A DNA stretch of 64,000 nt from Cyanidioschyzon merolae (lineage: Eukaryota), in NCBI GenBank assembly GCA_000091205.1, contig AP006491.2; one strand, 5' to 3'. Below the pieces are notes generated by a model that saw only the letters and a list, made by a program, of their open reading frames with translations, was not told where the DNA came from and did no database searches. Below are positions 22,676 to 59,924 of this stretch, one piece after another. Made by a program: the position numbers and the translations under genes. Every line of letters begins with the position of its first letter. The first letter of the stretch is position 1.

Positions 22676-24370
22676 GGGCAGTGTTCAATGCTTCGCTGAA
22701 GGCACCTGGTGTCCCCACAGTTCAGCTCTGTACCGTATGAGGCTTTGTAAAGACTTGACTCCGATCCACTGTGAAGTGTATTCGGTTGGGTTCCGGGCGC
22801 AGCACTGCGTGGGACGCCGTCCGCGTTTCCAGCTGTGTACGCGTTTCTAGCCACAAGAGCGCTGCTCGCCACGGTAGTGACTCCGGTTAGGCGCGAGGTG
22901 ACAGCACGTGCGCACGTTTGGTGTTATTTGGGCAGAGTTCCCGTCAGCAGGCTGCTGTGCCTTTAGGGCTGGGCCTTCTGGCTGCGCTGCAAACCCAACA
23001 GGAAGCTGAACTGCCGCAGTGCGCTCGAGTACGCCTAGGTCGTTGCGGTGCGCGCCGGCGTGTGCTGCTCGCGCTCAGGGTAGTTGCCGTAGACCGCGCT
23101 GGAAACCAACTAGGCACGCGCCTCGTCGTCCTTCTACTCGCAGGGGCCTCCTACCGCACTGCGCTTCTCGCTCGCGCTGCAGACTCGGGTAGGGTTCCGC
23201 GGCGCCGTGCTCAGAATTCGCACAGGCTATGAAACCTTGGTGCCTGAGAGCACGAACCTGTCTCCAGATGCGGTCGGGGCTCACCGGCTCAACGCGCTGG
23301 TGCTTTCCTCTCTTGTGGGTGCGCGCACGCGTAACTGGTCAATAGTGCTCGCAAGGCGTGTTGGTATGCAGCCCCTTCAAACTCCCCGTTTCACCGGGCA
23401 GAGACTCGGACTCGCTCACGCGTTTATGATCTGCGTACCACGGGCAAAGCGTCGAGTTGCACGCGCACCTAGCGCTCGAAGCTATCTATAAGAAAAGAAT
23501 GTTCACGACACAGCGCGACGCTAACGGCGACGTCCTGCAGCCTGGAGTCGTCTGCGCGCAGCCAGCGGTCATTTGGCGACGGCGGGGCGGGCGACGCGGC
23601 GGCTGCGCGCTGGTGCAGCGCCCTGCTGGTGTCCGTATTGTCGCAGAGCGCAATCGCCGCACCAGCGCAAGGCGCGCGCATCCCAGCGGCAGTGCACGCC
23701 ATCACTCAGGCAGGCAACCTGGCGCATCGTGCAGCGCACCCAGCGGCAGCGCACGTCTGTTGCCCATCCAGCTCGCTGAGCCTGTGAACGGCCAGGCCGC
23801 ATGCCGGACGCTTCGGGCGCGCGCCTCTCGCGATTCGCACGAGCGTTCCGTTTCGACGCGAGACGTCGACACTCGCGTCAGCACACGGTGAATTCCGCGT
23901 ACTGGACAGCATAAGGAGACGCTCGCTCTCGCTTGCTGGAGCCGTGTGCAGCGCACAAGTTGCGCAGCAGAAGAGCTGTCTTGTACAGACCGAGACAATA
24001 TCCGATACGTCGAGCAAGCCACAGAGCTGCCGGAAATACACAACGAGGAAGCAGTGTCGCGAGCTGTTATAGCGCTACACCTGACACGTCGAGCCTCGGG
24101 GGTGCTACGACCTGCACGAGGGCAACGACGGCGCACGGCATAACAAGCACGGGTAGACGGGTGCTGGGCACGTTCGGCTTGCTGCGACGCTGGTAGGAAC
24201 CGAACGGGGTGCTCGTACTCGCACCGCTCGCCACTCAGGGTCGCGATCGACACGAGAAGCGCCCACAGGGGAAACGATGGCACCACGAGCGCTGGACGCA
24301 TCGTCGGTGATCTCGGAACCGCTGACACTGCCGCTGACGGGCCGCGCCGCACGAGACCGGGACGCACTCT

Positions 24371-38913: not shown

Positions 38914-41900
38914 ATGCCAAGAGCCAGTCGAGGTGCAAACGGCAAAGCAGCTGAAGCGCTGCGGAGGCTTGCTGAAGCTCGTGAAAGCGGTAGGCGACCA
39001 AGTGAGGACTATGAGCTCGAAGAACCTGAGCGGGTATACGAGGCGGTGGACGAGGACACGTATCGATCGCGTCGGGCGGAAGAACGCCACCAGGTACGAA
39101 GCTTCATTGTCAAGGACCGGGCAACGTTCTCGGGCAGCTCCGAGGACGAAGACTGCTTGACGTATTCAGAGGAGGAGAGTGAAGGGCGAACAAGCGCTCG
39201 ATCACGTGTGCGCGCGGGACGACAGCGAAGCAGGGAGCGAGGCTCGAGTGCTACAGTGGCGCGGAACCTGCTCAAACCGACTCAAACTCGTTTCCTGGGG
39301 CAGCCTACAGTACCGGGGACGCTCAAAATTGAGCAAGCCGCTCTGGCTACTTCCGTTGCGTCACATGGGCGTGTGCAGTCAGCCTCAAGCTCTGGTCGAC
39401 GCAAAAGCTTGGTTGACGAACTGCTCGCTGAGCAAGATGAATGGGCAGCGGGCGAGGAACGCACGTTTGTCGCCTCGAGAGCGCGCGGAAACGATAGTCG
39501 CCCGCTAGATGCACAGCCAAATCAGCATCCGACATCGGGTGTGATATCGGCACCACGACGGCGACGTGGCGCCCAAGATCTGCTCGTGGAGAGTGGCCCG
39601 CAGATCCCACTCGAAAGCCGTTCAGATACGGATCACGATCACGAGCATGATCCGAGAACACCCAGTACCCAAGAAAAATCTTGGACGACTCTCCAGGCTG
39701 CAAATGCGAGCGATTCTGAAAATGACATGGAGGTGAACGACGTCGACGCCGACCTCCTCCTGGATCGCGTACTTGAACTCGAGGCCGAATACGCCCACGA
39801 GGCAACTGAAAACGGAGTAACTGCCGTAGAAGGCGATCTTCCTGGTGATCGCGTTCCCGCGCTAACCTTTTTCGCGCTCGACATGCAGGAAATTTTGGAC
39901 AAAGTCTTCGTGTTCGGTCGAGCTCTGTTGCCGGAAACAAGCTCTTCAACTGCGGTTTGTGTTCAAGTTTGCGGCATTGAAAGGGAAATCTTCTTCTTGC
40001 CTCGAATGTACGTAGACTGCCCCGACGACGAGCAGGCAACACCACGTCCCTACCCGATCCTTGCGTCCGAGCAGGAGCCAAGATTGGCCCCCATCTCAGA
40101 AGGCATTGCTTTCTCCTGTGTCTACGAGGAAGTCAAGTCAGTTTTGCTGGCTCGCGGCATCACCGAATTCACCGCCCGTCGCGAGGAACGTTGTTTCCTT
40201 ACGAACCAGATCGATCGTCGCCGGGCGGAAGTAACATCGTGTTTGCGTGTGCGATACCCGGCAAAGTATCGAGCTTTGGAAACTGCTCTCGAGGGCCAGA
40301 CTTTCTCCCAAATCGTTGGTTCAAGAAATTCACCGCTAGAGAATTTCATACTTGAGCGATGCGTGCCAGGTCCGTGTTGGGTACAAGTCTCGAACGCAAG
40401 CCGCGTCACTGGGATATCATCATGTCGTTGGAGCCTTAACGTGGACTCGCCAGCTCAGTTCAGAGTGCTCGCGGCGGAGGAGATTCCAGCGTCGCAACCG
40501 CCAGGGCTGCGCGTACTGACGTTTTCCTTGCGCACGATCGCTGAGGCATCTCCTACATCGTTCGAAATAGCGATAATCTGCGCGACTGTATTCGATAATG
40601 TGCCCACGAACCGGAACTTGGGCGAAACGCCGCACCCTTCCATGCAGTTTGGCATCGTTCGGCCGCCAGCGCATGAGGCATTCCCTTTCGGTTTCGAGCG
40701 AATGATTTCGGGAAGAAGAATTCTTCGCGAGCGGAACGAGCTCGCCATGATCGAGCGCTTTCTCCGCGAAATCAATCAGCTAGATCCAGATGTCATCATT
40801 TGCCACCAGCTCCTCACGAGCCAATTCGATGTGTTCTTGAAAAGAATGCGTGAGCTGCGTCTCCGTGACTGGTGGCAGCTCGGCCGGCTTGTTCAGCGAC
40901 GTCCTTTGCAAGATTTTCGAAGTCATATGCAAGCATCTGGTCGCGGTTTGAATCCTGCACTGGCTCGGCAAATTTTCGCCGGGCGGCTCTTATGCGACAC
41001 AGAGGAGGCGGCTCGAGAGTACTTGCACAAGGAGAAGGACTATGGGCTCCGTGTCCTCTGCCGGGCGCTCCTCGGCTCCTACAAAAGCGCCGCGACGGGT
41101 AGCGATGGTGAATGGTCAGCCCAAGCCATGCGTTCAGTTTATCGCGAGGCGAAGCATCTCGTGGGGGCCATCGACTCATGTCTGGAAGACGCCAAGCTCA
41201 GCTTCCTCTTGGCAGACCGACTGGCGGTCATTCCGCTTACGAATGAGCTCGCCAGCATATGTGGATACCCTTGGGGTAAGACGATGCTTGGAAATCGAGC
41301 TGAGCGCATTGAGTATCTGCTGCTGCACGAGATCCACCGTTCTGGCAAGTACGTTGCGCCTGATCGGAGTTCGGGCCAAAGAGCCAGCATCCGACCGAAA
41401 CGCCCAAGCTTCGACCCGACAGCGCAGGCAAGCGCCGACAAAAGGCTGGACGCTGCGAGAACTCCCTCCAGTACACAGAGAGGTGCCTCAACACCGACCA
41501 CAACTGAGGGCAGCGCACTCGAGCTTGCGTCTTCAGCCAAACGGCGCAAACCTGCCTACCAAGGGGGATATGTGCTCGAGCCAAAGCGCGGTCTTTACGG
41601 GACTTGCGTTCTGCAACTCGACTTTAGCTCCCTCTACCCGTCCATCATTCAGGAATACAACATAGACTTTACCACCGTCACATTGGACTCTGAGGGAAAC
41701 GCCCTCTTGCCCAAACATAGCAACGAGCTGGGCATTCTTCCAACCGTGCTTCGGAGGCTCGTTCAGCGACGAAGACAGGTTCGAGAAGCGGCTCGCAACG
41801 AGTCGAGCCCTGTCCGCCAGCAACAGCTGCACACCAGGCAGCTAGCGCTCAAACTGACAGCGAACGCCCTGTATGGTTGTTTGGGATACGTCCACTCGCG

Positions 41901-43497
41901 TTTCCACATTCGCGAACTTGCGGAACTGATCACACGAACTGGACGGGAAACGCTTGAGCGTACAGTAGAGCTCGCGGAACAAGTTTTGCTTCGAAAGCTC
42001 GACGACCTGGTTGCAGCGTCAAACGTACCGGATCGTGCTTCTGGGGTCCAGCCTCGCGTTATCTACGGCGATACGGACTCGATCTTCATCGACAGCGGGA
42101 TTCCTTTTTCCTCTGATTCCGTGCAGCGTATCATGGAGCTGGGCCATGCTATTCGCCGCGAGGTTAATAAGCAGTACCATACTTTGGAAATTGAAATCGA
42201 AGCGTTGTATGTGCGTATGTTATTACTGAACAAGAAGAAATATGCCGCGCTCAAGTACCAGATCGATACCGGCTCATTCAGCAAGGAGGTCAAAGGCATC
42301 GAAGTCGTTCGACACGACTGGTGCGCGCTCGTCGCCGCAGCGGGCAACTTTGCCCTGGATCAGATTTTGGACCCAACCTGTGTGGCCACGGAAGCGAAAG
42401 ACCGCATTTGCAAGTACTTGTCGGAGCTGGCGACGCGCATGCGGCAAGGACGCGTCGACCTAGATCAGTTCGTTATCACCAAACAGCTGACCCATGACCC
42501 GGATGCCTACGATGATGCAGCGATCCAGCCGCATGTGCAGGTCGCCCTGCGTCGGCGAGAACGTGGATACGTCGTCGCAGCTGGCACCTTTATCCAGTAC
42601 GTTGTGTGCCGGGAGCCGTGCGATACTCGGCTTCGACGAGGAGAGGCAATCGATGGTGCTCGCGCACCCATCGATACCGTTGCACGTCGGGCGTGCCATC
42701 CGGATGAGTACCGCGAAGCACAGGGCATGCTGCATCTCGATATCGACTGGTATTTAGAGAATCAGTTGCATGCGGTGCTGAGGCGTATAACGGAGTCTGT
42801 TCCAGGCCTTGATGCCGCTGCACTGGCGTGCTGTCTTGGTCTGAACGCCCAACCGTTCCTGCGAGCTCGAATCATGGCCGACCAGATGACACCCGGAAGC
42901 ACCGCGTCGAGTCAAGACCAACGTCGCAAGCTTCTTGTCGAGGATCTTTTTGGTGCGTTGTCCGATCCGCTCGTGGTGCCGTTCACAGCCCAGTGTCCCG
43001 CTTGTGATCAGCGGTTTCCCATCGATTTCCGCTTCGAAGGCGAACACATCAGACCGGCCATTCATATTGATCGTTGCCCACGACCAGCTTGCGGTGCCGT
43101 CATCCCAGTCACCGTGCTTAAGCAGCAGTTAATCGTGTTCATTCGCCACGTGATCCGTCGGTACTACACGAGTCCCGAACTGTTGAGAGGCCATGCTTGT
43201 CGAGCCGCCGACGACGACTGGCTCGCGCACCAAGACTCGGATGTTACGTCGTTCCCGTTGTCAAGTGAATCGCTTCTCCAGGAGGGAATCTCTGAACGCG
43301 AATATGGCGAACGCACGCTCTATGCGCAATTGGAGCGATTACAACTTGCCTTGGGCAAAAATTCCGACGATCCAGATGCGGAGAAGCCGTCCGGGGGTTC
43401 AGCATCCACAGCTGCTGTGGCGTTGCAAGCCCTTGTTCAGTCGTATCTAGATGCATGCGCGTACCAGTACGTTGAGCTCAGAGCCTTGTTCTCCTGA
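38914..43497 (+). CDS. POLA1: DNA polymerase alpha catalytic subunit (family B). The ORF track starts at 38881 with TTG; the first ATG is at 38914.
   Basis: Pol-alpha motifs: region II LQLDFSSLYPSIIQEYNIDFTTV; region III/motif B KLTANALYGCLGY; region I/motif C VIYGDTDSIFI. The C-terminal Cys-rich zinc modules (CPACDQRF...CPRPACG) are typical of Pol alpha. Confidence 0.92.
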   Translation: MPRASRGANGKAAEALRRLAEARESGRRPSEDYELEEPERVYEAVDEDTYRSRRAEERHQVRSFIVKDRATFSGSSEDEDCLTYSEEESEGRTSARSRVRAGRQRSRERGSSATVARNLLKPTQTRFLGQPTVPGTLKIEQAALATSVASHGRVQSASSSGRRKSLVDELLAEQDEWAAGEERTFVASRARGNDSRPLDAQPNQHPTSGVISAPRRRRGAQDLLVESGPQIPLESRSDTDHDHEHDPRTPSTQEKSWTTLQAANASDSENDMEVNDVDADLLLDRVLELEAEYAHEATENGVTAVEGDLPGDRVPALTFFALDMQEILDKVFVFGRALLPETSSSTAVCVQVCGIEREIFFLPRMYVDCPDDEQATPRPYPILASEQEPRLAPISEGIAFSCVYEEVKSVLLARGITEFTARREERCFLTNQIDRRRAEVTSCLRVRYPAKYRALETALEGQTFSQIVGSRNSPLENFILERCVPGPCWVQVSNASRVTGISSCRWSLNVDSPAQFRVLAAEEIPASQPPGLRVLTFSLRTIAEASPTSFEIAIICATVFDNVPTNRNLGETPHPSMQFGIVRPPAHEAFPFGFERMISGRRILRERNELAMIERFLREINQLDPDVIICHQLLTSQFDVFLKRMRELRLRDWWQLGRLVQRRPLQDFRSHMQASGRGLNPALARQIFAGRLLCDTEEAAREYLHKEKDYGLRVLCRALLGSYKSAATGSDGEWSAQAMRSVYREAKHLVGAIDSCLEDAKLSFLLADRLAVIPLTNELASICGYPWGKTMLGNRAERIEYLLLHEIHRSGKYVAPDRSSGQRASIRPKRPSFDPTAQASADKRLDAARTPSSTQRGASTPTTTEGSALELASSAKRRKPAYQGGYVLEPKRGLYGTCVLQLDFSSLYPSIIQEYNIDFTTVTLDSEGNALLPKHSNELGILPTVLRRLVQRRRQVREAARNESSPVRQQQLHTRQLALKLTANALYGCLGYVHSRFHIRELAELITRTGRETLERTVELAEQVLLRKLDDLVAASNVPDRASGVQPRVIYGDTDSIFIDSGIPFSSDSVQRIMELGHAIRREVNKQYHTLEIEIEALYVRMLLLNKKKYAALKYQIDTGSFSKEVKGIEVVRHDWCALVAAAGNFALDQILDPTCVATEAKDRICKYLSELATRMRQGRVDLDQFVITKQLTHDPDAYDDAAIQPHVQVALRRRERGYVVAAGTFIQYVVCREPCDTRLRRGEAIDGARAPIDTVARRACHPDEYREAQGMLHLDIDWYLENQLHAVLRRITESVPGLDAAALACCLGLNAQPFLRARIMADQMTPGSTASSQDQRRKLLVEDLFGALSDPLVVPFTAQCPACDQRFPIDFRFEGEHIRPAIHIDRCPRPACGAVIPVTVLKQQLIVFIRHVIRRYYTSPELLRGHACRAADDDWLAHQDSDVTSFPLSSESLLQEGISEREYGERTLYAQLERLQLALGKNSDDPDAEKPSGGSASTAAVALQALVQSYLDACAYQYVELRALFS

Positions 43498-43644
43498 CTC
43501 GGGGCCAGGAGCCGGCTGCTCCTTCGTGCCATTATGGCAGTGCTAGCACGACGGTGCTGCGATCGCACACCAGTATGCGAGACCGGTCGTGTACGCGCTC
43601 AGTGGTTCACGTTGATGACTTGATACATAGCTGGTCGTGCCGCG

Positions 43645-44817
43645 CTACCTCGAGAAGCTGATTCCCTCGCTCTCGAGGAACCGCATTAACAGCTGGGTCG
43701 ATACGCTGACGTGCTTTGCTGCCAGCGTTTCCATAATTGCTCGTAACGGCACGCAGTCAAGTAAAAGAATACGCTCGTAGAGTGCAGAATCGGCTTTGAT
43801 TGCATCGCGAATGCTTCGGAAGCGGATGCTGTCTCGGTCGAGAGAAGCAGGCACTGCAGCATCTGGGGCAGTCGATGGCGCCTCGGTCGCACTGCAGTCC
43901 GATATCGGGTTCTCGGTGTGCTCCAGCGAACTTGAATGGAGTGCCGCCTCAGTGCTCGCCTCGTGCCCAGAAAGGTCACTGGCGTCGTCGCAGAGGTCGA
44001 CAACCTCGACGGCGTCTTCAGGGCGTGTCGGGATCGTCTCCGTTGGAGCGGGTAGCGTGGCGCCTCCGGTACCAGTGCGGAGCATGTCCCGCCCGATTTG
44101 AAGCGCACCCGCCAGTTGTGTATAGCCATTTCGATACAGTTCTATATCCTCGCATGAATCACTGGCGCAAACAGTCTCACGCTCACATGACTCCTGTGCA
44201 CTGCATCCGTCGTGGTCGCTCGAGTAACGTGGCATCCGCCGCTTCTTCACGCACGCGAGCCGATCCAGTGCAGGTTCCTCGACAAAGCAAAGCGTTTGCT
44301 TTCGCCGCTTCTCGTTCTGTTTCCCCAGGTTTGCAAGGGAAATACGGTATGCAGGTGTACGTAGTGCTTCCCAGAGCCGTTCGGCGCTTGATCGCGGAAT
44401 CTTCAGAAGCTCCAGGTCCGGCTGTTTGAGCAGGAAGAGCCGCTCGAGCGTCAGCTTCTCGCTGACAAGCAGTTCTGCGTAGCGTGCGACACCGTGTGCA
44501 GCCAGAAAGCGTCTCAGTGGTCCAAAAAGTCGCTCTTTTTGAATGCGTCTTTTCAAAAGCTTTTTCTCTTCCAGGGCACGTAGACGTTCGAGATCTGCGC
44601 GAAAACTGCAGCGATCGACGTGACGCCAGCGCCAGTCGAGCGCCCACGAACCAATCTCACGTCCACAGAACGGACACTTGACCTCCTCGTTACCAGAAAC
44701 TTCCTCGGTTTCGGAAACTGATGCAGGTGCTGTAGTAGGACAACAGGTTTCCAAGTGGTGCAGCTGCTCGTAGAGGCACAGAGAATCCAGCGGTGTCTGG
44801 CACTTGCTACAGTGCAT
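43645..44817 (-). CDS. SLX4-like structure-specific endonuclease scaffold (UBZ4 finger plus C-terminal Slx1-binding-like domain). Tentative.
   Basis: ATG at 44817. UBZ4-type finger VKCPFCGREIGSWALDWRWRHVDRCS (CPxC...HVDxC). The C-terminal tail ...ALYERILLLDCVPLRAIMETLAAKHVSVSTQLLMRFLESEGISF resembles the conserved SLX4 C-terminal domain, which ends ...FLDSxGITF. Confidence 0.4.
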   Translation of the reverse strand: MHCSKCQTPLDSLCLYEQLHHLETCCPTTAPASVSETEEVSGNEEVKCPFCGREIGSWALDWRWRHVDRCSFRADLERLRALEEKKLLKRRIQKERLFGPLRRFLAAHGVARYAELLVSEKLTLERLFLLKQPDLELLKIPRSSAERLWEALRTPAYRISLANLGKQNEKRRKQTLCFVEEPALDRLACVKKRRMPRYSSDHDGCSAQESCERETVCASDSCEDIELYRNGYTQLAGALQIGRDMLRTGTGGATLPAPTETIPTRPEDAVEVVDLCDDASDLSGHEASTEAALHSSSLEHTENPISDCSATEAPSTAPDAAVPASLDRDSIRFRSIRDAIKADSALYERILLLDCVPLRAIMETLAAKHVSVSTQLLMRFLESEGISFSR

Positions 44818-44914
44818 ACATGAAAGGAAACCACACTCGCGCTGGGACGAACACCGGACTTGAATTTTTTTGAACGGCAGCGATTGGCAGCGACTCGGCA
44901 GGCGCCGAACTCGT

Positions 44915-46196
44915 AGTCGTTGCGGTATCTCCGAAAAGGAAGCAGACAGCGCCCAGATTCTGAACGGAAAACGAGTGACGCCGCTTAGTTTTTCCAGAGC
45001 TCATAATTCACGGGAGTCAGGTTCCATGGACAAGAGGAGTCATCCCCACAAATTGAATGACGGCATCAGGACCCGTTTTTGCGTGCCGAGCACCGTGCCG
45101 TGCAGAGGCGAATGCTCCGCACGCGGTTTTCAGAGCGTCCATGTGCGTGCGGACGACACTCAGCAAGCGAGCATGAGCATAATCATAAATATAAATAAGC
45201 TTGAGCACGAGCACGAGCACGAGCATAATTCTAAATATAGACATAAGCACGAGCATGAGCATGAGCATAATCATAAATATAAATAGAAACATAAGCACGA
45301 GCACGAGCATAATTCTAAATATAGACATAAGCATGAGCGTGAGCATGAGCATAATCATAAATATAAATAGAAACATAAGCACGAGCACGAGCACGAGCAA
45401 AAGCATGAGCATAATCATAAATATAAATAAGCTTGAGCACGAGCTTGAGCTTGCACTGAGGCCGCCAACGATTTCGGTTGAACGGCGGCAAGCAGCGTGC
45501 ACTCTCCTACTCTTTCACTGACTTGGCAACGTAACTGACCGATACTGCGCGTCGCGTGGTATGGTGGTGGTCGTGTATTGCGCGGCATGTTCTGTAGCAC
45601 GCAATGGTTGCCCGCCTGCTCGCTCGATGGAGGCGCGCAACAAGTGGAGGCACCGATTCTGCTCGATTCTCGTCGATGCGCTCGGGACGGCATGTGTGCA
45701 CGACGAGCACGAGTACACGCTGGAAAATATAGAGAGGAAGAGTGTGGAACGTTGATGGGCGCACGAGGTCTTGTGCGGGAAGTTTATCGAACGTCAGATG
45801 CCGAGCCAATCGCAGGCGTGATGCTCGCTATGATGCATCTCCATGAGCAAGGAGGCACGCGAGCACCCTCTGCACCACCGAGACGTCAACGCCTCGAAAC
45901 AAGTCTGGAAATGTCTCGCGCTTGGGGACCATCCAACGACTGTGTGCTCGATGGAGCCTCCTGAGGGAGTCACTCTGCGCGCAGTGCGAGATTTGTGGTG
46001 AAACGCTGAGGAGCTCTGATGAACAAGTCCGTGACCTGGAGAAAGGAGTTTTTTGATTCTCGCCTGGAGCAGAGCGGTAGTATTGAACTGTGCAGGAATG
46101 CAGAGAGCTCGGTATACCGCATATTCAAGACCGGAACGGTTCTCCTGGGCAATTGTCGAAAGATAATGGTGGTCTGTTTGTCGATATCACCGAGTA
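44915..46196. repeat. Dispersed repeat family B, copy 2 (~1.28 kb), with the minisatellite expanded (~45170..45455, ~5 units of ~55-60 bp).
   Basis: Same evidence as copy 1. The extra ~174 bp relative to copy 1 lies entirely in the AT-rich/(CACGAG)n tandem array. Confidence 0.85.
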
Positions 46197-47222
46197 TAGC
46201 CTTATACCATTCGTGGACGCTGACTAGATCCATTCCTCACTTACCATAAACAATACCTGCCCAAGTCCAGCAGTATTCCATGCCACCTGCGGCGCGTTGA
46301 ACCACAAGATACGCGGCATTTGGCGTCGTGTCAACAATCGTGCGCCCACAGAGAGCTGATTTCGACCTCTCCAATGTTTCGGAGCGGTGCCGATGCCGGA
46401 GCAGATGACAGCGCTCTCGGCTGCGGTGCTTGTCCACAAGGCATCACCCTGGCACTCTTCCTGGTACGCGTGATCCGAATAGAAGGCTACAAAGGATCAA
46501 ATGCGCTGGCGATGTTCTGCATTGCTTCCTGTCCACCTGCGTTCGATGCAGCGAAAAGTGCAGAAGCGCATCGCGCTGTCACTACGTTCGGTGCATTCGC
46601 CTGTATCCGGACACATGGGCACAAGATTTCGTCTGATGGTGGATATTTCGCAAATATCGATACATGCGTTCATGAGTGGTTTGCGAGCTCACCGCGCACG
46701 CATTCGCTAGCGGACTTTGCGGTGTTCACACGCAAGAAGCGCCCTGAGTGTCAAACATGCACGTACTGAACGCGATCTCAGGGTGCTCTCTAAGCGTACA
46801 CAAATGATCATCTTTGCGATCTTGTGACGGAATTGGGATGTTGACGCGGACGCCTGCCCTCTGGAGGCATCAAAACAGCGGTGCTCGTTTCATACAGGTA
46901 ATGATTGCAACAGAATAGCCCATACACCGTCGTAATTCCCACCTGCGGCTTTCACCGCGTAATAGGTTACAGATTCGAACAGCGAGATCGCCACTGCCTG
47001 GTATCGGTGCGGATTGAATGTTTTCAACAAGAGCGCACTCGCTGTTCGAGCTCCCGCGGAAAATCCTCGATCTGGATTCCGCGAAGTTGACCAAGCGCTT
47101 TGAGCGAATCGGCTGGAGACAAGCTCAAGTGCTCATTGATGAGCCCGTCTGCCTCTCTGTGGCACAAGATAACTGCACCGACAGCGTATCGTTCCGCGTA
47201 GGAGACTCTTTCCACGAAATAG

Positions 47223-49607
47223 ATGGTGCTTATTTCGTTCGTGCTCCACAGGCAGCGAACGACACGTCATGAGAAGAAACTGCAGCTGGATGAACGCCAG
47301 CGCTGCAGTCGGCGCGTATCGACCGCTGTCGTGGCCGGGCGCCGCTGCCTGCCGGCGCTGTGCGGCGCTGACGCGAAGATCGCTTTTCTTTCCGGTACTC
47401 AGGAGCACGACGTGGTGTGTGTTGGGTGGATGGGAGCTTCATGGACGCTCTGGCGGGCGGAATACCTGTCCGATAACCGACTTCACTTTGGATTTGTGCC
47501 TGTTGGCTTCCCTTGCCGTTCCCGGCAGCGATGCGTCGGGAAGAGTCTGCGCCAGTGCGGTGCTTTGCGAACGCGACAGCGGCTGCTGCAGCCGCCACCG
47601 CCGCTCGACTACACCAGCGTTGCTGCGCTGGTTCACTCTGTAAAGCAGCGGACTGTTCCCGGTAGACTGGAAACTGTTCTACAACCGGACGCTCGAACCC
47701 TTTACCTTGGCCTGAGAACGCTCGAGATCCCACGGGTGTGGTTGACACTGTCGTGGCACCCGCAGCTCGCGCGTCTAACTGCGGTTCCGGAGCGCAAGGG
47801 CTCCGGCAACCAGAACGACGCACTACGGTATGGTGTGCCCAAGGCGTTCCAAGCCGAGAGCATGCCGTATTCGGTGTCGAACGTGCTGCGCTCAAGAGAG
47901 TTCCGAGACTTGATTCTCTGCGATTGTCGCGCCCCACTTGCTTTTGAGCGCCTCGTGGAGTTCGACTTGGCACGACGACCTGGAGAAGAGCCCATTTTGC
48001 GCATAATTCTGGAACTTGTTGGAACTAGAAGCAACCTCGTTGTACTTGGTGGCATGGATCGACTGGGCGGTCGCGATTCTGGCGATATCCTCGCGTGCGG
48101 TTACCAGCTGGCTGAGGGCAAGAGTGATCGGCCGTTTCGAGTCGGCGATCGTTACGTGTATCCTGCAACAGTACAGGCGAGTTCATCACGTATGCCATCG
48201 GTTTATCGGGACGAGGAGCCGTGGCGCGAGCGACTTGTGGCGACTGCGAGCGGGGATCTCATCTGGCGGGGCCTCACGCGAGCCTTCGTCGGACTCAGTA
48301 GTGCACTGGCGCAGGATATGGTTTCCAGTGCGCTCGGGTCGGATGCACTCGAGCGTTGCACTGAAGAGCTTGAGGCGTCTGAGTGGCACGCGCTGTTTTC
48401 AAACTGGCTTGCGTGGTTAAGTGCGTTGGAGCGTCACGACTTTGCTCCTCATCGAAAAGTTGGCGGCGCTCTTGCAGAAAAAGCATCGGGCCGCACCTCT
48501 TACTCTATGGTGCGTTGGCCAAATGAGGCTCCGTTTGTTCCCACTGATGCGTCTGATCTCATCGCAGACCTGTTCGATCGCTATGAGGTTTGCGTCTACG
48601 CGGAATCTATGGGGAAACGACTGCGCCGAGAACTCGCCCCAAAGCTGAAGCGGGTGCGCAATGCTCTCGCCCAGTATACGAATCGACTCGCTGAAGCGGA
48701 GCACGCTGACCAGTTGCGGGCACGTGGAGACTTGCTCATGGCGTGGCAGCATCTGTGGCAACCTGGCGAGACCTCCCTGAGACCTCCGTCCGAGGCCGCA
48801 TCGGCGTTCGAGTCATGGAAGGGAGACGGCCTGAACGCGGTGTTGGAGATCGCTCCGGGGCGGACGCCCGTGGAAGAGGCTCAAGCGTGTTACCAGCGCA
48901 GTCGCAAACTGCGTCGGGCGGTGCAGGCGCTCGCTCCACTGGAACAGGCCGCGCGCAGAGAGCTTGAACACCTGGAACATTTAGAGTACATGATTTCCGT
49001 AGCGCTTGACTACGGGCAGGATCCAGACTTGGAGCTGCTTCAAGAAGTTTTCAATGAATTACACCTTGCGCAGGCACCAAAATCCGGCAAGTCTGTACCG
49101 TCCAAGCGTGGCTCGCCGACCCGTCGTGACGCAAAGGCTAAGGGCGCATCGAACGCCCGTCTGCTAGACCGTTGCATCCAGTTGCAAGCTGCAACCGAAG
49201 GTTCGAGAATCCTGTGTGGCAAGAGCCAGCACCAGAATGATTACTTGACATTTCGGGTTGCAACGGAGAGTGATCTGTGGTTCCATGCGCAGGGATGTGC
49301 GGGATCGCATTGTATTCTGCGAATGCCGCCCGGATTTGTAGCCTCCACGGACGATGTGCAGCTCGCCAGCGACGTCGCTGCCTACTTTAGCAAGGCACGA
49401 CTCCAAAAATCCGTGCCGGTCGTTTACACTCAGATCAAGTACGTGCGCAGAGCCGATGCCCCGGGTACTGTGAAATATGCAAATGAACGAGTCATTTTCG
49501 GTGAGCCGGATCGAGCTCGGGCGTTCGTGGAGGAACGCAGCGCCATTGAGTTGAGCTCTGCGAGCTCTTCAGCGTCCAGCGCTGTTGAGTCCGGAGACGA
49601 AACGTGA
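47223..49607 (+). CDS. Bacterial-type ribosome-quality-control protein (RqcH/FbpA/Tae2 family, NFACT-N plus coiled coil plus NFACT-R) with a ~140-aa N-terminal extension that may be an organellar transit peptide.
   Basis: ATG at 47223. The NFACT-N-like segment ...VPGRLETVLQPDARTLYLGLRT...LTLSWHPQLARLTAV...ILRIILELVGTRSNLVVLGG parallels FbpA GGRIQKIHQP...LLLSAHP..RIQLT...ELMGRHSNIIL. The C-terminal NFACT-R/DUF814 segment is WFHAQGCAGSHCILRMP...VAAYFSKA.... Confidence 0.6.
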   Translation: MVLISFVLHRQRTTRHEKKLQLDERQRCSRRVSTAVVAGRRCLPALCGADAKIAFLSGTQEHDVVCVGWMGASWTLWRAEYLSDNRLHFGFVPVGFPCRSRQRCVGKSLRQCGALRTRQRLLQPPPPLDYTSVAALVHSVKQRTVPGRLETVLQPDARTLYLGLRTLEIPRVWLTLSWHPQLARLTAVPERKGSGNQNDALRYGVPKAFQAESMPYSVSNVLRSREFRDLILCDCRAPLAFERLVEFDLARRPGEEPILRIILELVGTRSNLVVLGGMDRLGGRDSGDILACGYQLAEGKSDRPFRVGDRYVYPATVQASSSRMPSVYRDEEPWRERLVATASGDLIWRGLTRAFVGLSSALAQDMVSSALGSDALERCTEELEASEWHALFSNWLAWLSALERHDFAPHRKVGGALAEKASGRTSYSMVRWPNEAPFVPTDASDLIADLFDRYEVCVYAESMGKRLRRELAPKLKRVRNALAQYTNRLAEAEHADQLRARGDLLMAWQHLWQPGETSLRPPSEAASAFESWKGDGLNAVLEIAPGRTPVEEAQACYQRSRKLRRAVQALAPLEQAARRELEHLEHLEYMISVALDYGQDPDLELLQEVFNELHLAQAPKSGKSVPSKRGSPTRRDAKAKGASNARLLDRCIQLQAATEGSRILCGKSQHQNDYLTFRVATESDLWFHAQGCAGSHCILRMPPGFVASTDDVQLASDVAAYFSKARLQKSVPVVYTQIKYVRRADAPGTVKYANERVIFGEPDRARAFVEERSAIELSSASSSASSAVESGDET

Positions 49608-50898
49608 CCAGCGTAGCCAGATGCTTATCGTCAGGTCAGGAAAAGTGCATGTCGATGTGTGTCTGTTGAGAACCAGTGACTGGGCGTGGTATCGTGAGCT
49701 CAGCATGACCAACTCTTTCGGCAGATGCTGCACGAGGCGCATCGATACAAAAACTGTTCGGGTCCATCAGAAGCATAAGGAAGCTGACTGGCACTCTCCT
49801 TTTAGTGAATTCGTGGGAGACTGGGTGTCAAATGATCTCTGGGTGACCGTGGGACGTATCAGCGAGAAAGCACGTGACTTTGCCACTGGTTTCTCTGCTT
49901 CCAGCGTTCAACGCGGAACCCGCGAAAGGGTTTTATTTCGGATACCGCCGCATCTAGGCGTCAGCGGCTGCACGGATGTAATAGTCCCCCCGCCAGCGTC
50001 GTGCCCCATGCTTCGCACGCTTTGGCGCTGTGCTGAAATCCACGCTCTGTCGTTGCCCTTGTCGTTTGCGAAAAGCCCATCTATTGGACGAGGCCTGTTC
50101 ATCCTGGCAATGATGTTTCAGGAGCCAATCTTGATGTGCGGGTGCAGGAGCGCGCCGCCACTTCATGAAACGCGCCTGGCATGTCGACTGCGATGCACCG
50201 GCATCAGCGTAGCGAGATCGGCGATAGATATGCACGCTGGGGCACCCAGCGCGACATACCACCGACTGATGCAACACCAGCGCAGAGGTTACGAGTTTAA
50301 CGCAAAGCCCGGCACAGAAGACGTTCACTATGATACTCGGTACAGGGGGGGGGGCGCGTGCCTAAACCAACGAGTTTCCCCTCAGTGGTGCGACGCGCGC
50401 GTCTGGGGTCTCTTCACCGGAAGCGCATTGCCCCGCCTAAACCTGCCGTCCATCGTTCACGCAATGGATCAACCTGCCGTTCACGCATCACTGCCGCGAG
50501 CGCGTGCATCCATGCATGCAATCTGCTGTCCATCTTTTACCCCATCGATCAATATCGCCGTGCACGCATGCGTCGTCGCTTTGCATCACCGGGCGCGCGC
50601 ACGAAGCAGATGCTCCAAATGTGCATCATCTTCGATCGATGCGTGTGCATTGTGCGGACACGTTGCGTAGATCGCGATCGGCAGCGCGCGGCTGCGGCTG
50701 CGGCTGCGGCTGCGGCTGCGGCGGCCGTGCGGAGATACGGCGGTATCCAGGCTGGCGCAGCGTGTCTGCGTGTGCGAAACGCGCACCATCCCGAGGCGAA
50801 CTGTCAGACAAACGCGGTGACGTCGACTCAAGGAACCGGGCTGTGAGTATAGCGCTCTTTTGTGCTCTGGTATAGTAGGCGCAGACTTGGCTTAGCGA

Positions 50899-52509
50899 AT
50901 GCGTGAGCGCCTCCCCAGTCCAGGCCGTTCGGGAACGCCTGCGCTGCAGTCTACGCGTGGGCACGATTCGCTGCAGCGGCTGCGCGTTCGGCCGGCGAGT
51001 TTTTCACAAACTAGCAGTGCAGCCGACGTACCAACTAGTCCTTTAGTGCTACCACCACTCGTTGGTGGCATGCAGCAAGGTGTTTCGGATTTTGGAAGAG
51101 CCTCAACTGGTCGGGGCCCTCTGTCTAGTGACGCGCCGCCTCCAAGCAATCGAACCGTCGGAATAGGCGGATCCGAAGGGGTACAGAAAGGCGATGACGA
51201 GGGCCAGGACGGCTTTTTCATAGGTAACAACCTGTTTCTCGCAAAAGGCCTCACAACAGCCGCCGCTTTGGCGGACGAACAACTGACGGGCGCGGCGCCT
51301 AGCCGGCTGGGCCCCAGCGGAAACGGCGAAAATAACCCACTGACGCTGAGACGAACGCTTTCCTGTATAGAGATAGACCCGTTTGGAAAAGCACAAGTAC
51401 GCGTTTACACTCGAGAGGAACTCATTCGAGAGCTGCGTTCAGAGTCCGTTACCGGGAACACTGCGGTCGACGTGGTCGAGCTTGCCTTCATCCGAGGCGA
51501 TGCCCGCGAAGAGTCGCAAATGTCTGGCGCGCTGGATCTGGCGCCGGTGACTGGTGGAAATCGACGCACCAAGTCATCAAAATCGAAGAAGAGGACCAAG
51601 TACGGCCCGATCCAGTCTCGCGATCTACGGTTGTTGGACCCGGCGTTCAGTGTGGAGCCGGCCTTGCATGTACGCGATCACGTCATTCTCGCGGTTTTCG
51701 ATAATCATATCCGAGCTGCAATCCAGTCGCATCGCCTGTTTATTTTTGATCACGAGTCCAAAAGAGCGCGACGGGCTACTGAGTTCGTTGTGCAACGACT
51801 CTCCCGAGTGTCAGCCGAGGAGGCGGTGCCCTTTGAGTTCGTTGCGCTGGAGGCGCTTCTCATGGCCACTTGTGCGGACATAGAATGGATGATGAGAAAC
51901 GTGGAGCCATTAATTGAGCGTGAACTAGGAGTTCTTTCAAGAGATCTGCGACGGAGTAATATCGAACGGCTCCGGGTCGATGAGCGCAGGCTCTCTCTTC
52001 TGCTTTCCCGAGCGCGGAATTTCGAGCACCTGCTCGAGGACATCCTCGACGAGGACGAGGACATGAGCCACATGTACTTGACCGAAATGCGTTACCATCC
52101 GGAAAAGTATCGTCTTCCTACCGATCACGAAGATGTGGAGCTGTTGCTCGAGAACGCGCTGCAGACGGTGCAGAGTCAGGTTCGTCGATTGGAGCTGCTC
52201 GATGCCGGCATCAATAACCTTGAGGAGATTCTGGAAATCAAACTGGATATATCTCAGAATCGCATCTGGTCGTTTAATATTTTCGTGCACCTTTGCGTGG
52301 CGACATTCTTCTTAGCTGCAATACCTGCTGATTTTTTCGGAATGAACTTGCAAATACCGCCTGACAAGGATCCGAATGTATTCTGGCCGTGGTTGCTGGT
52401 TTTTGGATTGAATATGGGCTTGGCGGTGGCCTTCTTTTCGCTTGCCATGCTGTTTCTTAAGCGACGACGATTGCTCTTTGGTCTCTTTAAGCGCCATCCG
52501 AGTGACTAG
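50899..52509 (+). CDS. Mrs2/CorA-family Mg2+ transporter, paralog 1 (GMN type).
   Basis: ATG at 50899. Two C-terminal TM helices flank the signature FFGMNLQ (VHLCVATFFLAAIPADFFGMNLQIPP...LLVFGLNMGLAVAFFSLAMLFL). The upstream helical domain carries the DEDMSHMYLTEMR block shared with the neighbouring paralog. Confidence 0.75.
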   Translation: MRERLPSPGRSGTPALQSTRGHDSLQRLRVRPASFSQTSSAADVPTSPLVLPPLVGGMQQGVSDFGRASTGRGPLSSDAPPPSNRTVGIGGSEGVQKGDDEGQDGFFIGNNLFLAKGLTTAAALADEQLTGAAPSRLGPSGNGENNPLTLRRTLSCIEIDPFGKAQVRVYTREELIRELRSESVTGNTAVDVVELAFIRGDAREESQMSGALDLAPVTGGNRRTKSSKSKKRTKYGPIQSRDLRLLDPAFSVEPALHVRDHVILAVFDNHIRAAIQSHRLFIFDHESKRARRATEFVVQRLSRVSAEEAVPFEFVALEALLMATCADIEWMMRNVEPLIERELGVLSRDLRRSNIERLRVDERRLSLLLSRARNFEHLLEDILDEDEDMSHMYLTEMRYHPEKYRLPTDHEDVELLLENALQTVQSQVRRLELLDAGINNLEEILEIKLDISQNRIWSFNIFVHLCVATFFLAAIPADFFGMNLQIPPDKDPNVFWPWLLVFGLNMGLAVAFFSLAMLFLKRRRLLFGLFKRHPSD

Positions 52510-52668
52510 GGTACTGGCACGAGACATGCGCCAGCACCAGACCTCTGCGGGACAACGCGTGGTACCGCAAGACGCGCGACCGTTGCCGTGCTCGGGCGCT
52601 CTCGTCGACGTTAATCGGCGGATTCGTGGTGATGCTTCCCGAAGGACGCAGTTGATCTCGCTGAAACT

Positions 52669-54783
52669 TCATACGGTAAGGATACCAACCCGCCGCGCCC
52701 ACCAAAACATACACAGAATCGTGAGCGGCACCGTGAATGCCGTGATTGCCACAAAGCCGATGAACCACGAAGCATTGGTGCCGTAGATCGGCAGTTGCAG
52801 ATTCATGCTAAAGAATCGATTCACAACACCAGCGCCAGCGAAGACACAGGTCAGGACGGTCATTAACACACTGATGCGCAAAAGGCGATTTCGCATCGAG
52901 TCCAGTTGCAGATCCACTAAACCCTCGGTATCATCGATGGTGGCACCGAGGAGCCGTGCTCGGCCCGCCAGATAGTCCAGCACCCGCAGGTACGACTCGA
53001 GCAGCTCCTCCACCTGTGTGTGGGCTTTTGTCGGGCGCTCAGTGTCGGGGTGCTTCCGCATTTCGGTTAAATACATTCGAGCCATATCTTCGTCCTCGCT
53101 GAGCAGGTCTTGGAGCGCGTCTCGCACTCCGTCTACTCGAGATGAAAAGTTGCTCAACATTTGCTTCAAATAGAGCATTTCTTCCAGCTTCCTGCCGCTG
53201 ATCTTGTGTGTCAACTCATTCAGGAGGCGCGTGAGACTCGGCTCGATACACGCGAGATCTCGTTCGAGTGCGACGCACACCTCGATCAAAACGGATTCCA
53301 GCGCGTGAAGTTCAAAGGGAATCTCCTGTTCCTCATCACTCTGGGCAGCGATGAGCCGCTCTTCGATGGATCGGGCACTCTGACGCACACTCTGATCATT
53401 GGGATTGAAGAGCAACATATGATCAGCGAAAATGACGGCGCGCAGATGCGCAAGACTCACAATGATCACATGTCGCCGTACGAGAATAACGGGCCGCGGT
53501 TTTGTGGTCGGATGGATTTGTCTCAGGTCGCGGCTTTGAAGGATACCACGCAGCTCAGCCTGGAGCTTTCTGCGTTCCTTCTTGCGCTGTCGCCATACCG
53601 CGTGATGAAGCGTCTCTTCGGACTGGGAGTCTGCTGGAATGCAGTTGGCGCTGCTCGGTGCACGGATCTGATCGTTCGCCCGCGCTGCCGCCAGAATCTC
53701 TGTTGTGGTGATTTTCTCAACCGTGGCATGTCCGTTAAACCCAAACCGGAAACAAAGCAATGTGTTCAGGGCGCGTTTTGGTTTCTTTTGCTCGGCAGGA
53801 GTGTGTTGTCCAAATCCGGCGTATGGTGTTGTCGCGATGGGTTCCGGCGCCTGGCCCCGAGCACGCCCGCTAGGGCGCAACGTCGGTGGCTGCGGAAACT
53901 CCTCATCGTGGCTGTCGCGGTGCTCAGGAGACACGTTTTCCGCACTCGAGGGCAGCGCGCCTTGTCTACGCTCACTTACAGGCGAATCCTCCGCACGGCC
54001 AGAATCTCTGTACAAGTCCCGCTCGTTCGTTGTAAGCGCTCCGTGCAGGTTCGTCTCGTGTTCGGGTCCGGAACTACTGCTAGGTTCAGCGTTGTCTGGG
54101 CGTTCGCGTGTGTGCAAGCTATCCGGGGTCGCGCGTTGCGTCGCACGCTGCAACAAAAGTTGGTTGCGAATCGACTGCTGAAAGAGTTCCAGAGTCTGGT
54201 TTCGAGATCGGAGGCCCTCGAGCGCACCGCTCGAAAGAGAACGTCGGAAATTCGTTTCCTTCGACGAGTACAGTCCCGACTCTGGAGCAGGCTCGAAAGG
54301 TTCCGCGGCAACTGGTGGCGGGCCAGTCTCGAGCAGGGGCGAAGAACCCGCCACCGCCACCGTCACCGCGGACTCCCGAGCGTTCGCCTCGCTCTCGGAG
54401 CAAGGTGGCGCCGGGTGCAAAATCGTCTCATCGTCCAGGCCTTCAGAAGCGTTTAGCGGTAGAATGGGAACTCCACCGTCGCTTTCAGAGTCTGACGCTT
54501 CCATGTTGCCGAGGCGCGAGCAGCGTGTGCCCGAATGCCAACCTCGATGCGCCAGCAGCCTTGCATAGCCGCATTTGGAGCAGGGGCAATGGAGCGGGCG
54601 CGAGGGCCGGGCATGTAGACGAAGCTGCATATTTTGGGACTCTGTGGACAGGGTAGCATACAGCTGATCGTTCTGCTGCGGCACGACAGCGTTGCTGGAC
54701 TTGTGAGCACTGGGCCTTAGGCAAACAGCGCTATGCGCATGCACGTGGGTGCACAGCACCGCAAACCCATGAAAAGACTCCAT
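52669..54783 (-). CDS. Mrs2/CorA-family transporter, paralog 2, with the signature altered to SMN.
   Basis: ATG at 54783. C-terminal ...LMTVLTCVFAGAGVVNRFFSMNLQLPIYGTNASWFIGFVAITAFTVPLTIL. It is co-linear with paralog 1 (DEDMARMYLTEMR; LHALESVLIEV ~ FVALEALLMAT). The Ser codon AGC was read directly on the minus strand at ~52805..52807. The true start may be an internal ATG, since the N-terminus is low complexity. Confidence 0.65.
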   Translation of the reverse strand: MESFHGFAVLCTHVHAHSAVCLRPSAHKSSNAVVPQQNDQLYATLSTESQNMQLRLHARPSRPLHCPCSKCGYARLLAHRGWHSGTRCSRLGNMEASDSESDGGVPILPLNASEGLDDETILHPAPPCSESEANARESAVTVAVAGSSPLLETGPPPVAAEPFEPAPESGLYSSKETNFRRSLSSGALEGLRSRNQTLELFQQSIRNQLLLQRATQRATPDSLHTRERPDNAEPSSSSGPEHETNLHGALTTNERDLYRDSGRAEDSPVSERRQGALPSSAENVSPEHRDSHDEEFPQPPTLRPSGRARGQAPEPIATTPYAGFGQHTPAEQKKPKRALNTLLCFRFGFNGHATVEKITTTEILAAARANDQIRAPSSANCIPADSQSEETLHHAVWRQRKKERRKLQAELRGILQSRDLRQIHPTTKPRPVILVRRHVIIVSLAHLRAVIFADHMLLFNPNDQSVRQSARSIEERLIAAQSDEEQEIPFELHALESVLIEVCVALERDLACIEPSLTRLLNELTHKISGRKLEEMLYLKQMLSNFSSRVDGVRDALQDLLSEDEDMARMYLTEMRKHPDTERPTKAHTQVEELLESYLRVLDYLAGRARLLGATIDDTEGLVDLQLDSMRNRLLRISVLMTVLTCVFAGAGVVNRFFSMNLQLPIYGTNASWFIGFVAITAFTVPLTILCMFWWARRVGILTV

Positions 54784-58149: not shown

Positions 58150-59924
58150 TCAACCACGGGCGATTCCTTCGACGAACTCGACAAGCGTACGAGTAGGAAC
58201 ACCTGTCGCCATGCTCTGCTTCTCATTCCACACGGTTCCCGCGATATCCAAATGTGCCCAGGGGACTTCCTTTTTCACAAATTCCTGAAGGAAGAGGGCG
58301 GCGATAATTGCCCCGCCCCATCGACCTCCTGTGATATTCTTGAGATCGCTAATTTTGCCCTTCAGTCCCTCGCGGTACTCAGGTGCAAGTGGCATACGCC
58401 AGACGCGCTCGCCGACAAGTTTGGCGGCAGAATCCAGCCGTGCGGCGATATCATCATGAGCGGTCCACATGCCCGAGTACTCCGTGCCGAGCGCGACAAT
58501 GCAGGCCCCGGTCAGCGTCGCAATGTCGACCAGGGCATCCAAGTTAGGAATATTCTGCTGGGCGTAGAGAAGTGCGTCCGCCAGCGTTAGGCGACCCTCG
58601 GCATCCGTATTCAACACTTCAATGGTTTTCCCATTGCTCGCCGTTAGAATGTCCCCGGGATGGTACGCTTTCCCCGAGATCATGTTTTCACAGCATGCCG
58701 TAATGACGGAAAGCTCTAAATTGGGCGGCTCCAATGCCATGATGGCCTTCATCGTGCCGAAGCAAGCCGCCGCGCCGCCGCAGTCGAACTTCATCAGTTC
58801 AATCATCGAGCCGGCGGTCTTGAGGTTGTAACCGCCAGTGTCATGCGTTATGCCCTTACCAACGAGACACACGCGCTTTTGAGTCTTTCCCGGTGTCACG
58901 ACGGGTGAGGTATATTTCATATGGATAAACTTGGGAGGGAGCTCAGAGCCCTGGGCAACTCCTAGAAAAGCGCCCATGCCGAGGCGCTCGCAATCCTCCT
59001 TCTCGAGGATGGTGCAGGTTATCGATCCTCGGGAGCTTTCGGCGAGGCTCCTTGCGGTTTCCGCGAAGAACTCCGGCGTCGCTACGTTTGGTGGCGCGTT
59101 CACGATCTCGCGCGTGAGGATAACGCCGCTGGCCATCGCTTCGCCGCGCTTCACTGCGGTCTCGTCCGCACCGAGGAGATCGATGAAGGCACCGCTGGGT
59201 TTCGTTGCTGCGCCCTTTGTCGCGCCGTCCTCTTCCTCCGATGAACGGAATCGATCATCGGTAAAAGCTGCGAGCAGAACGGCTTCCGCGAGGCGCTGCG
59301 TGAGTACTTCCGGCGCTAGCGATGCCTTTCCTTGCGGCGAAGCGATGACGACGCCCAAACGATCCGGTTGGGAGCTGTCGGATTTCAACTGCGTGCTCAC
59401 AAAGGCACCAAACTGTTCAAAATATCAGTGTTGAAGTCGTCGTCCTTTCCAAGACAGTAAACGGCCACGCGCCGCACTCGCACGGTGATGGTATTGCTAT
59501 CTCCCAGCACCAGGAGGTGTGTTGTGACAGAGCTTCCGGACTTTAACCTCGGCTCCGCGTCTTCAACGAGCTTTTTCACGATTCGAGCAAGATCTGGGCC
59601 CAGTAAACGATTCGCCCGTTCAGAAAGCTCGTATATCGTGGCACCAGTTCCGCCGCTGGCACTGGATGCACTGCCAGCCGCAGCGCCACGGGTCAAGTCA
59701 GCCGAGAAGAGGCCAATGACCAAGGTTTCCCCTTCGAAGGCGTGCGAGCCCTCCGACGGCAGCGGTCTCGCTCTCAACGTCGGTAGTTGCCGTCGCTCGG
59801 ACGCCGGCCTCGGTCTCGTGGGTACAGTCATAGCCAGTGATCGGATAGGCGCAAATGGAAAGACGCTTCGCCGAGCAGCGGGACGCAAACGAGCTCTCTC
59901 CCAGCACGGCCCAGCCACAAACAA
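58150..59924 (-). pseudogene. M17 leucyl aminopeptidase split into two frames (N-domain ORF 59397..59924; catalytic-domain ORF 58150..59400). This is either a frameshift or an assembly error.
   Basis: The catalytic domain has ...NAPPNVATPEFFAE..., ...VCLVGKGITHDTGGYNLK..., and the signature NTDAEGRLTLADAL. The upstream ORF has an N-domain-like ...ETLVIGLFSADL...AVYCLGKDDD.... The two frames overlap without stops only across 59397..59424, which is too short for an intron. Confidence 0.7.

Follow-up and report, generated by a model that had tools for sequence, protein, structure and literature searches.

Within a 64,000-nucleotide stretch of the genome of the hot-spring red alga Cyanidioschyzon merolae (contig AP006491.2 of assembly GCA_000091205.1; hereafter, the window), two genes of the Mrs2/CorA type lie tail to tail. 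One of them, which we call gene A, encodes the canonical Gly-Met-Asn (GMN) selectivity filter, whereas in the other, gene B, the filter reads Ser-Met-Asn (SMN). We found that the serine of B is fixed and old, and that the core of the protein is under strong purifying selection. In our trees, B groups with paralogs carrying Thr or His at the same site, in a cyanidiophyte-specific clade whose members have all lost the filter glycine. Judging from these sequence patterns, we find the arguments evenly balanced for B being a conducting pentamer subunit with altered filter properties.

The Gly-x-Asn motif gives the 2-TM-GxN superfamily its name, and mutagenesis marks it as untouchable. Here, Ser, Thr, or His is held at the filter glycine under strong purifying selection across saturated divergences, providing natural, evolution-vetted variants for testing why GMN is conserved. 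The question bears on the handling of Mg2+ and toxic metals by acidophilic algae, and C. merolae is genetically tractable. A search of the literature available to us returned no paper on SMN, TMN, or HMN filters or on the C. merolae Mrs2 genes. The conserved clade with polar filter residues, to which three of the four C. merolae family members belong, seems to be undescribed; the genes themselves are already annotated as Mrs2-like, and their identity is unchanged by our analysis.

Gene B encodes an Mrs2-like protein with serine at the filter glycine

An exact-sequence look-up assigned the window to C. merolae strain 10D and showed both genes to be identical to GenBank entries on an 810,151-bp record. 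Gene A occupies 50899..52509 on the plus strand (536 amino acids plus stop; BAM80057.1 / XP_005536343.1), and gene B, as annotated, 52669..54504 on the minus strand (611 amino acids plus stop; BAM80058.1 / XP_005536344.1). GenBank labels both as ‘similar to mitochondrial magnesium transporter Mrs2p’. An earlier note on this DNA had described them as convergent Mrs2/CorA paralogs, and this description was borne out by the open reading frames, by Pfam (PF22099, MRS2-like; E = 7.7e-35 for A and 1.5e-46 for B, both exceeding the gathering score), and by an alignment of A with B over ~400 residues (28% identity, E = 1e-43). The helical block that the note had reported as common to the two proteins, DEDM(S/A)(H/R)MYLTEMR, was confirmed as well, reading DEDEDMSHMYLTEMR in A and SEDEDMARMYLTEMR in B.

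On the minus strand, the filter of B is spelled TTC TTT AGC ATG AAT CTG CAA (FFSMNLQ), while that of A, on the plus strand, is TTT TTC GGA ATG AAC TTG (FFGMNL). The three filter codons of A, GGA ATG AAC, lie at 52339..52347 (G481, M482, and N483), with Gly at 52339..52341. Those of B, AGC ATG AAT, lie at 52801..52809 and encode S659, M660, and N661 of the long open frame, with Ser at 52807..52809 and Met at 52804..52806; the serine is S566 of the 611-residue protein. The AGC codon had been read correctly before, although its position, given as ~52805..52807, was about two bases off.

Comparison with proteins of known structure placed this serine exactly on the glycine of GMN. B matched CtMrs2 of Chaetomium thermophilum (8q8p/8q8q) in a phmmer search of the PDB (E = 2.8e-37), the first transmembrane helix (TM1) aligning without gaps and Ser falling on G441. 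Further residues common to the two proteins are R413, N414, T427, M442, N443, and the RDLR motif named in the CtMrs2 paper (PMC11919701). B differs in having Leu for M417, Ser for D420, and Gly for T434 (human MRS2 likewise has Gly), and in lacking an acidic pair in the loop between TM1 and the second transmembrane helix (TM2). Set against the signature of the 2-TM-GxN superfamily (PF22099, and PF01544, CorA), B keeps Asn and Met and departs from it at Gly.

The conserved core of B, at 52669..53766 (minus strand), comprises an alpha/beta N-terminal domain, a stalk helix, TM1, the filter loop, and TM2, as delineated by Pfam, the CtMrs2 match, an AlphaFold2 model, Foldseek, and substitution rates. 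The same architecture, with a long stalk leading into TM1, loop, and TM2, is common to CtMrs2, human MRS2 (8ip3/8tul), and yeast Mrs2 (3rkg). The RDLR motif of B is encoded at 53521..53532 (minus strand; residues 418-421 of the 704-residue frame), and its R, D, and second R are invariant in the alignment. The pore helix TM1 (52810..52884, minus strand) carries the T427 equivalent and is immediately preceded by R631 and N632, which correspond to CtMrs2 R413 and N414; an MRNR stretch of B aligns there, and the residue of A that corresponds to R413 is Gln. TM2 of B lies at 52699..52767 (minus strand). Upstream of the core, an acidic and fast-evolving N-terminal extension of ~246 amino acids (53767..54504, minus strand) falls outside the Mrs2-like domain match, which in Pfam covers residues 400-631. 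In A, TM1 ends at the filter and corresponds to 52264..52338 (plus strand; residues ~456-480, aligned with TM1 of CtMrs2 and B), and the hydrophobic WPWLLVFGLNMGLAVAFFSLAMLFL, aligned with the TM2 of relatives, forms its second transmembrane helix at 52384..52458 (plus strand; residues ~496-520).

The AlphaFold2 model of the B core, built from a 22-sequence alignment, has a mean predicted local distance difference test score of 81.8. It shows a continuous helix (core residues 250-320) that ends at the serine; a short loop then leads into the second transmembrane helix (332-360). Foldseek matched this model to CtMrs2 and human MRS2 with template modelling scores of 0.80 and 0.79, respectively, with bacterial CorA well behind. 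As modelled, the core of B is an Mrs2 fold with two C-terminal transmembrane helices.

The serine is conserved and the core of B is under purifying selection

The serine is not peculiar to the sequenced strain. All 14 members of the cluster that gathers B-like proteins at 90%, which derive from strains and hot-spring metagenomes, read NRFFSMNLQ. SMN orthologues, whose existence in related species the earlier note had left to be checked, were found in Cyanidiococcus yangmingshanensis, in a relative represented by SRR17356570, and in a Cyanidium-like assembly (ERZ1300892), where the motif is RWFSMNLQ. Within the variable N-terminal region, the gene model of the Cyanidiococcus SMN gene has a 40-nt gap (an intron or a patched frameshift); its conserved part lies in one frame and was used as such, so the motif is unaffected. 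Across eight independent assemblies, the serine codon is either AGC or AGT, while the flanking Phe, Asn, Leu, and Gln codons vary synonymously.

Substitution rates point in the same direction. By the Nei-Gojobori method, the ratio of nonsynonymous to synonymous substitution rates (dN/dS) of the B core is 0.059 between two Cyanidiococcus-like genomes (dS 1.56). For the transmembrane region, comparison of the window with the Cyanidiococcus-like genomes gave 0.05-0.08, synonymous sites being otherwise saturated. In contrast to the core, the N-terminal extension evolves at a dN/dS of ~0.4-0.5. Within the B orthogroup, the segment comprising TM1 and the filter has the highest mean identity (82%) and TM2 the lowest (57%). 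The A orthogroup has the same profile, with 77% for TM1 plus filter and 57% for TM2. Taken as a whole, this pattern points to B being a functional nuclear gene.

The earlier note had considered a single-base sequencing error at this site, and AGC is indeed one base from GGC. We regard an error of sequencing or assembly, or a decaying pseudogene, as having practically no chance of being correct, and we ruled both out: the same serine occurs in all 14 protein variants and, as AGC or AGT, in the eight assemblies, which span three further species-level lineages; the reading frame is intact in every one of them; the core has a dN/dS of ~0.06; and in the sister paralogs the corresponding codon specifies Thr (ACG) or His (CAC).

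A cyanidiophyte clade without the filter glycine

To place B within the family, we scanned 1.84 billion representative proteins with its core using HMMER, which recovered 2097 relatives. Among the best 150 relatives covering the motif, 141 carry GMN. The others comprise one GMV, two proteins of the oomycete Aphanomyces (A. stellatus / A. astaci) with AMN and AIN, and the cyanidiophyte set with SMN, TMN, and HMN; within these 150, a filter without Gly is confined to the cyanidiophyte clade and the two oomycete proteins. The earlier description of this glycine as almost invariant needs to be tempered somewhat by the natural Ala-Met-Asn (AMN) variants known in monocot MRS2 genes.

Rather than the pair originally described, C. 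merolae 10D has four Mrs2-like genes, of which A is the sole one to keep Gly. Besides A (GMN) and B (SMN), these are paralog C (BAM81115.1; 434 amino acids; TMN, with Thr codon ACG) and paralog D (BAM81010.1; 470 amino acids; HMN, with His codon CAC), both on another chromosome (866,983 bp). Where CtMrs2 (T427) and B have a pore Thr, paralog C has Glu. Cyanidiococcus has the same four paralogs, and the Cyanidium-like genome has an SMN gene, a version of the Thr paralog that reads Thr-Val-Asn (TVN), and the genes A and A2, both with GMN; A2 clusters at 90% or more with Cyanidium caldarium KAK4536057.1. Cyanidiococcus, SRR17356570, and Cyanidium each have an orthologue of A.

B shares 40-41% identity with its TMN and HMN counterparts and 28-33% with A. 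In neighbour-joining trees with bootstrap, each orthogroup was recovered at 98-100% and A with A2 at 100%, while SMN grouped with TMN at 80% and SMN, TMN, and HMN together at 78% or 92% in two trees. By these trees, the SMN, TMN/TVN, and HMN paralogs are one cyanidiophyte-specific clade, all of whose members lack Gly; we refer to it as the xMN clade. Its filter Met and Asn are invariant except in the TVN paralog of the Cyanidium-like assembly. Since B is closer to, and clusters with, the TMN and HMN proteins, we ruled out that A and B are closest paralogs produced by a recent local duplication; both are Mrs2-like, as the earlier note had it, but they are not each other’s nearest kin. At the codon level, single steps lead from Gly (GGY) to Ser (AGY) and on to Thr (ACY), in keeping with the sister relation of SMN and TMN.

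In the trees, the four C. merolae paralogs fall outside both the fungal clade and the one that holds the Porphyridium protein named ‘mitochondrial Mrs2’. The red-alga-derived nucleomorph Mrs2p of Guillardia theta (AAK39715.1) has GMN and groups broadly with the algal C. merolae paralogs rather than with fungal or animal Mrs2, its exact place being poorly supported (bootstrap 25). A metagenome scan with two peptide patterns returned C. merolae-like SMN, TMN, and HMN proteins together with distant GMN or AMN ones; it revealed no further xMN members, an absence that, with two patterns, is weak evidence. Some freshwater-sediment eukaryote contigs read GFLAMNL, an independent loss of Gly resembling the oomycete AIN and AMN.

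The N-termini of A and B differ

We compared the N-termini of the four paralogs by the composition of their first 40 residues, a proxy rather than a targeting prediction. A is Ser/Thr-rich and basic, with seven Lys or Arg and two Asp or Glu, and looks like an organellar presequence by this measure. The N-terminus of B is strongly acidic, with no Lys or Arg and ten Asp or Glu, and belongs to the fast-evolving extension of ~250 residues. C is acidic (three Lys or Arg, five Asp or Glu), and D is mixed (five and six, respectively), its first 20 residues being basic. A mitochondrial Mrs2 orthologue would be expected to have a presequence and to be orthologous to fungal or animal Mrs2; B showed neither, by the composition proxy and by the neighbour-joining trees. 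Its acidic, presequence-free N-terminus with the long extension suggests a non-mitochondrial, non-plastid membrane, such as the plasma membrane, vacuole, or endoplasmic reticulum.

Possible consequences of a serine filter

In CtMrs2, the G441 main chain and the N443 side chain hold Mg2+ at the narrowest and selectivity-determining site (PMC11919701). If B functions as a channel of the same kind, with Ser-Met-Asn in place of Gly-Met-Asn at the outer end of its pore helix TM1, it would still assemble as a pentamer and pass divalent cations. Five serine side chains would then form a ring where canonical channels offer the Gly backbone carbonyl alone. Such a ring would be expected to constrict or re-coordinate the pore at site S, its narrowest point, changing selectivity, conductance, or pH sensitivity without abolishing the pore; in the sister paralogs, Thr or His would be added at the filter ring. 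That the pore of B is still in use is suggested by the retention of its other pore hallmarks and by the constraint being strongest on the pore helix. On this footing, we hold it a matter of equal confidence and doubt that B is a conducting CorA/Mrs2-type subunit with altered filter properties.

Cyanidiophytes live in metal-rich water at pH 0.5-3. A bolder proposal, which we put forward as speculative and rather improbable, is that they possess a private Mrs2/CorA subfamily with a retuned filter, in which Gly has been exchanged for the ligand-capable Ser, Thr, and His, one per paralog. If true, pentameric rings of hydroxyl or imidazole groups could confer a preference for other cations (transition metals, Al3+), proton exclusion, or pH gating, and would be natural proof that workable filters besides GxN exist in the CorA/Mrs2 fold.

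Several observations weigh against conduction by B. Replacing Gly by Ala in yeast Mrs2 abolishes Mg2+ permeation, as reported in PMC4613352; the rice AMN proteins OsMRS2-4 and OsMRS2-5 fail to complement a yeast Mg2+-uptake mutant, and the maize AMN protein ZmMGT6 complements weakly (PMC9948656). Likewise, a ScMrs2 triple mutant from GMN to AAA grows poorly (PMC11919701). By analogy with the Gly-substitution results from yeast, rice, and maize, homopentamers of B may be unable to pass any Mg2+. In addition, E449 and E450 in the TM1-TM2 loop of CtMrs2 attract hydrated Mg2+ (PMC11919701), and B is without both: in C. merolae its loop, SMNLQLPIYGTNASW, contains neither Asp nor Glu. Its orthologues have at most one acidic residue there, elsewhere than at the E449/E450 positions, and A has an Asp eight residues after the Gly. 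Loop acidic residues are also missing in many GMN algal relatives, which makes them a weak criterion for the Mrs2 subfamily. The deeper nodes of our trees have bootstraps of 37-78%, and the composition of the N-terminus is the sole footing for the location suggested for B.

The results with Gly substitutions, which abolish or weaken Mg2+ transport in homomers, favour an alternative that we consider possible but unlikely: B, non-conducting alone, would be a modulatory subunit that co-assembles with the GMN paralog A as a heteropentamer, in the style of Lpe10 and Mrs2. Its Ser subunits would tune or restrict conductance, with Mg2+ coordination coming from the GMN subunits. CorA-family proteins are known as homo- or hetero-pentamers (PMC6972854), and an xMN gene sits beside a GMN gene at two loci, namely the convergent SMN gene and A, and the TVN gene in tandem with A2. 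This adjacency, however, is equally well explained by an old tandem duplication, since the tree form ((B,C),(A,A2)) fits a two-gene block; moreover, B and A are not adjacent in the Cyanidium-like genome, and convergent genes have no common promoter. The presequence-like N-terminus of A and the strongly acidic one of B suggest different membranes, which mildly disfavours co-assembly. Nor does the constraint on TM1 of B, which is like that of the pore-forming paralog, or the ratio of three xMN genes to one GMN gene in C. merolae, sit easily with a purely modulatory role. We think it improbable, and would be surprised to find, that B conducts nothing and that the Mrs2 scaffold has been reused, for example as a sensor of Mg2+ or another metal, or as a regulator that is anchored in the membrane and works by way of its N-terminal domain. 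Such reuse would account for the loss of the hallmark glycine and of the loop acidic residues and for the long, fast-evolving N-terminal extension, and the N-terminal domain of Mrs2 is a known Mg2+-binding regulatory module (PMC11919701). Yet the strongest constraint falls on TM1 and the xMN loop rather than on the N-terminal domain, and B retains the Met and Asn of its filter along with the gate Arg and the pore Thr, which a scaffold-only role would not predict.

Comparison with other Mrs2 variants

Like A and B, yeast Mrs2 and Lpe10 are two Mrs2 paralogs within one genome. Besides a sequencing error, the earlier note had proposed that B is either a subunit of altered selectivity or a regulatory one modelled on this yeast pair. 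Both yeast proteins have GMN and both are mitochondrial, whereas A and B differ in their filter and, judging from their N-termini, probably in their targeting. Compared with eukaryotic Mrs2 channels such as CtMrs2, human MRS2, and yeast Mrs2, B is lengthened by an acidic stretch of ~250 residues at its N-terminus, which does not resemble a presequence.

The natural AMN paralogs of monocots, OsMRS2-4, OsMRS2-5, ZmMGT6, and TaMGT1A/B/D (PMC4613352, PMC9948656), resemble B in that they are retained, have the first GMN residue replaced and Met-Asn kept, and coexist with GMN paralogs in the same genome. They differ in that Ala is small and apolar, while the Ser, Thr, and His of C. merolae are polar potential ligands, and in that non-Gly forms are the majority in C. 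merolae (three of four). Given the cyanidiophyte-only distribution of the xMN clade, we presume that it arose independently of the monocot AMN proteins, in red algae and not in land plants. A different class of variants, with Gly-Ile-Asn (GIN) or Gly-Val-Asn (GVN) filters (ZntB; OsMRS2-8), has been linked with other divalent cations such as Zn2+ (PMC4613352, PMC9948656). In those, the middle residue is changed and Gly is kept; in B, Gly is changed and Met is kept; and in the TVN protein of the Cyanidium-like genome, both are changed.

Gene order around A and B

The stop codons of A and B are separated by a short spacer at 52510..52668, which we counted as 159 bp rather than the 160 bp reported before. 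Cyanidiococcus, SRR17356570, and other C. merolae strains have the same convergent A/B order, with spacers of 154 bp in Cyanidiococcus, 151 bp in SRR17356570, and 159 bp in a C. merolae strain. The neighbours in the window are eukaryotic housekeeping genes, encoding DNA polymerase alpha, Slx4, NFACT, an M17 aminopeptidase, MutL, and RHD3/Sey1. Gene order (38881..49607 and 58150..59400) is kept across three cyanidiophyte genera despite saturated synonymous sites, as the block SMC-Rpr2-CcmE-M17-Gar1-[SMN gene]-NFACT-Slx4-DNA polymerase alpha, so that B is a positional orthologue throughout.

In the Cyanidium-like genome, the SMN gene lies in the same block but abuts NFACT (70 bp) with no A between them, and the A orthologue is found elsewhere, beside an unrelated neighbour. 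Thus, either the Cyanidioschyzon/Cyanidiococcus lineage acquired A by insertion, or A was removed from the Cyanidium-like genome. We also looked for a degenerate Mrs2 partner beside the A orthologue of Cyanidium caldarium and rejected the candidate, a 401-residue neighbour that proved unrelated. The second xMN-GMN adjacency, in ERZ1300892, differs in orientation, the TVN gene standing 96 bp upstream of A2. Together with the tree form, the two adjacencies would most simply be explained if A and B were left over from an ancient duplication of a two-gene [xMN][GMN] block, rather than being a co-regulated unit; the slow change of gene order in cyanidiophyte genomes would have allowed their adjacency to be retained.

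Gene models and additional features of the window

The long open frame of B (52669..54783, minus strand; 704 amino acids) overstates the product, the annotated start being Met94 (54504). The starts of B orthologues align with this Met94, with homologous MEASDSESDGGVPILP / MSDSEHENDGSVPILP, and the 93 in-frame codons upstream (54505..54783, minus strand) have no counterpart in the orthologues or in the GenBank model. Between two C. merolae strains, this upstream extension has three nonsynonymous changes and one synonymous (dN/dS ~1), while the conserved core has one nonsynonymous and three synonymous, all of these being small counts. From the orthologue starts and this substitution pattern, 54505..54783 is probably noncoding and part of the 5' untranslated region. 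Several metagenome gene callers chose the long, 704-residue form of B.

A (GGCTGC)n hexanucleotide microsatellite of ~5.5 copies (50690..50722, plus strand) precedes the start codon of A by roughly 180 bp. Farther away, positions 22001..26000 of the window have a G+C content of 0.63-0.67, compared with ~0.55 elsewhere, and within this G+C-rich part a long open reading frame (24371..25531, plus strand) is overlapped by antisense open reading frames and has no Pfam match.

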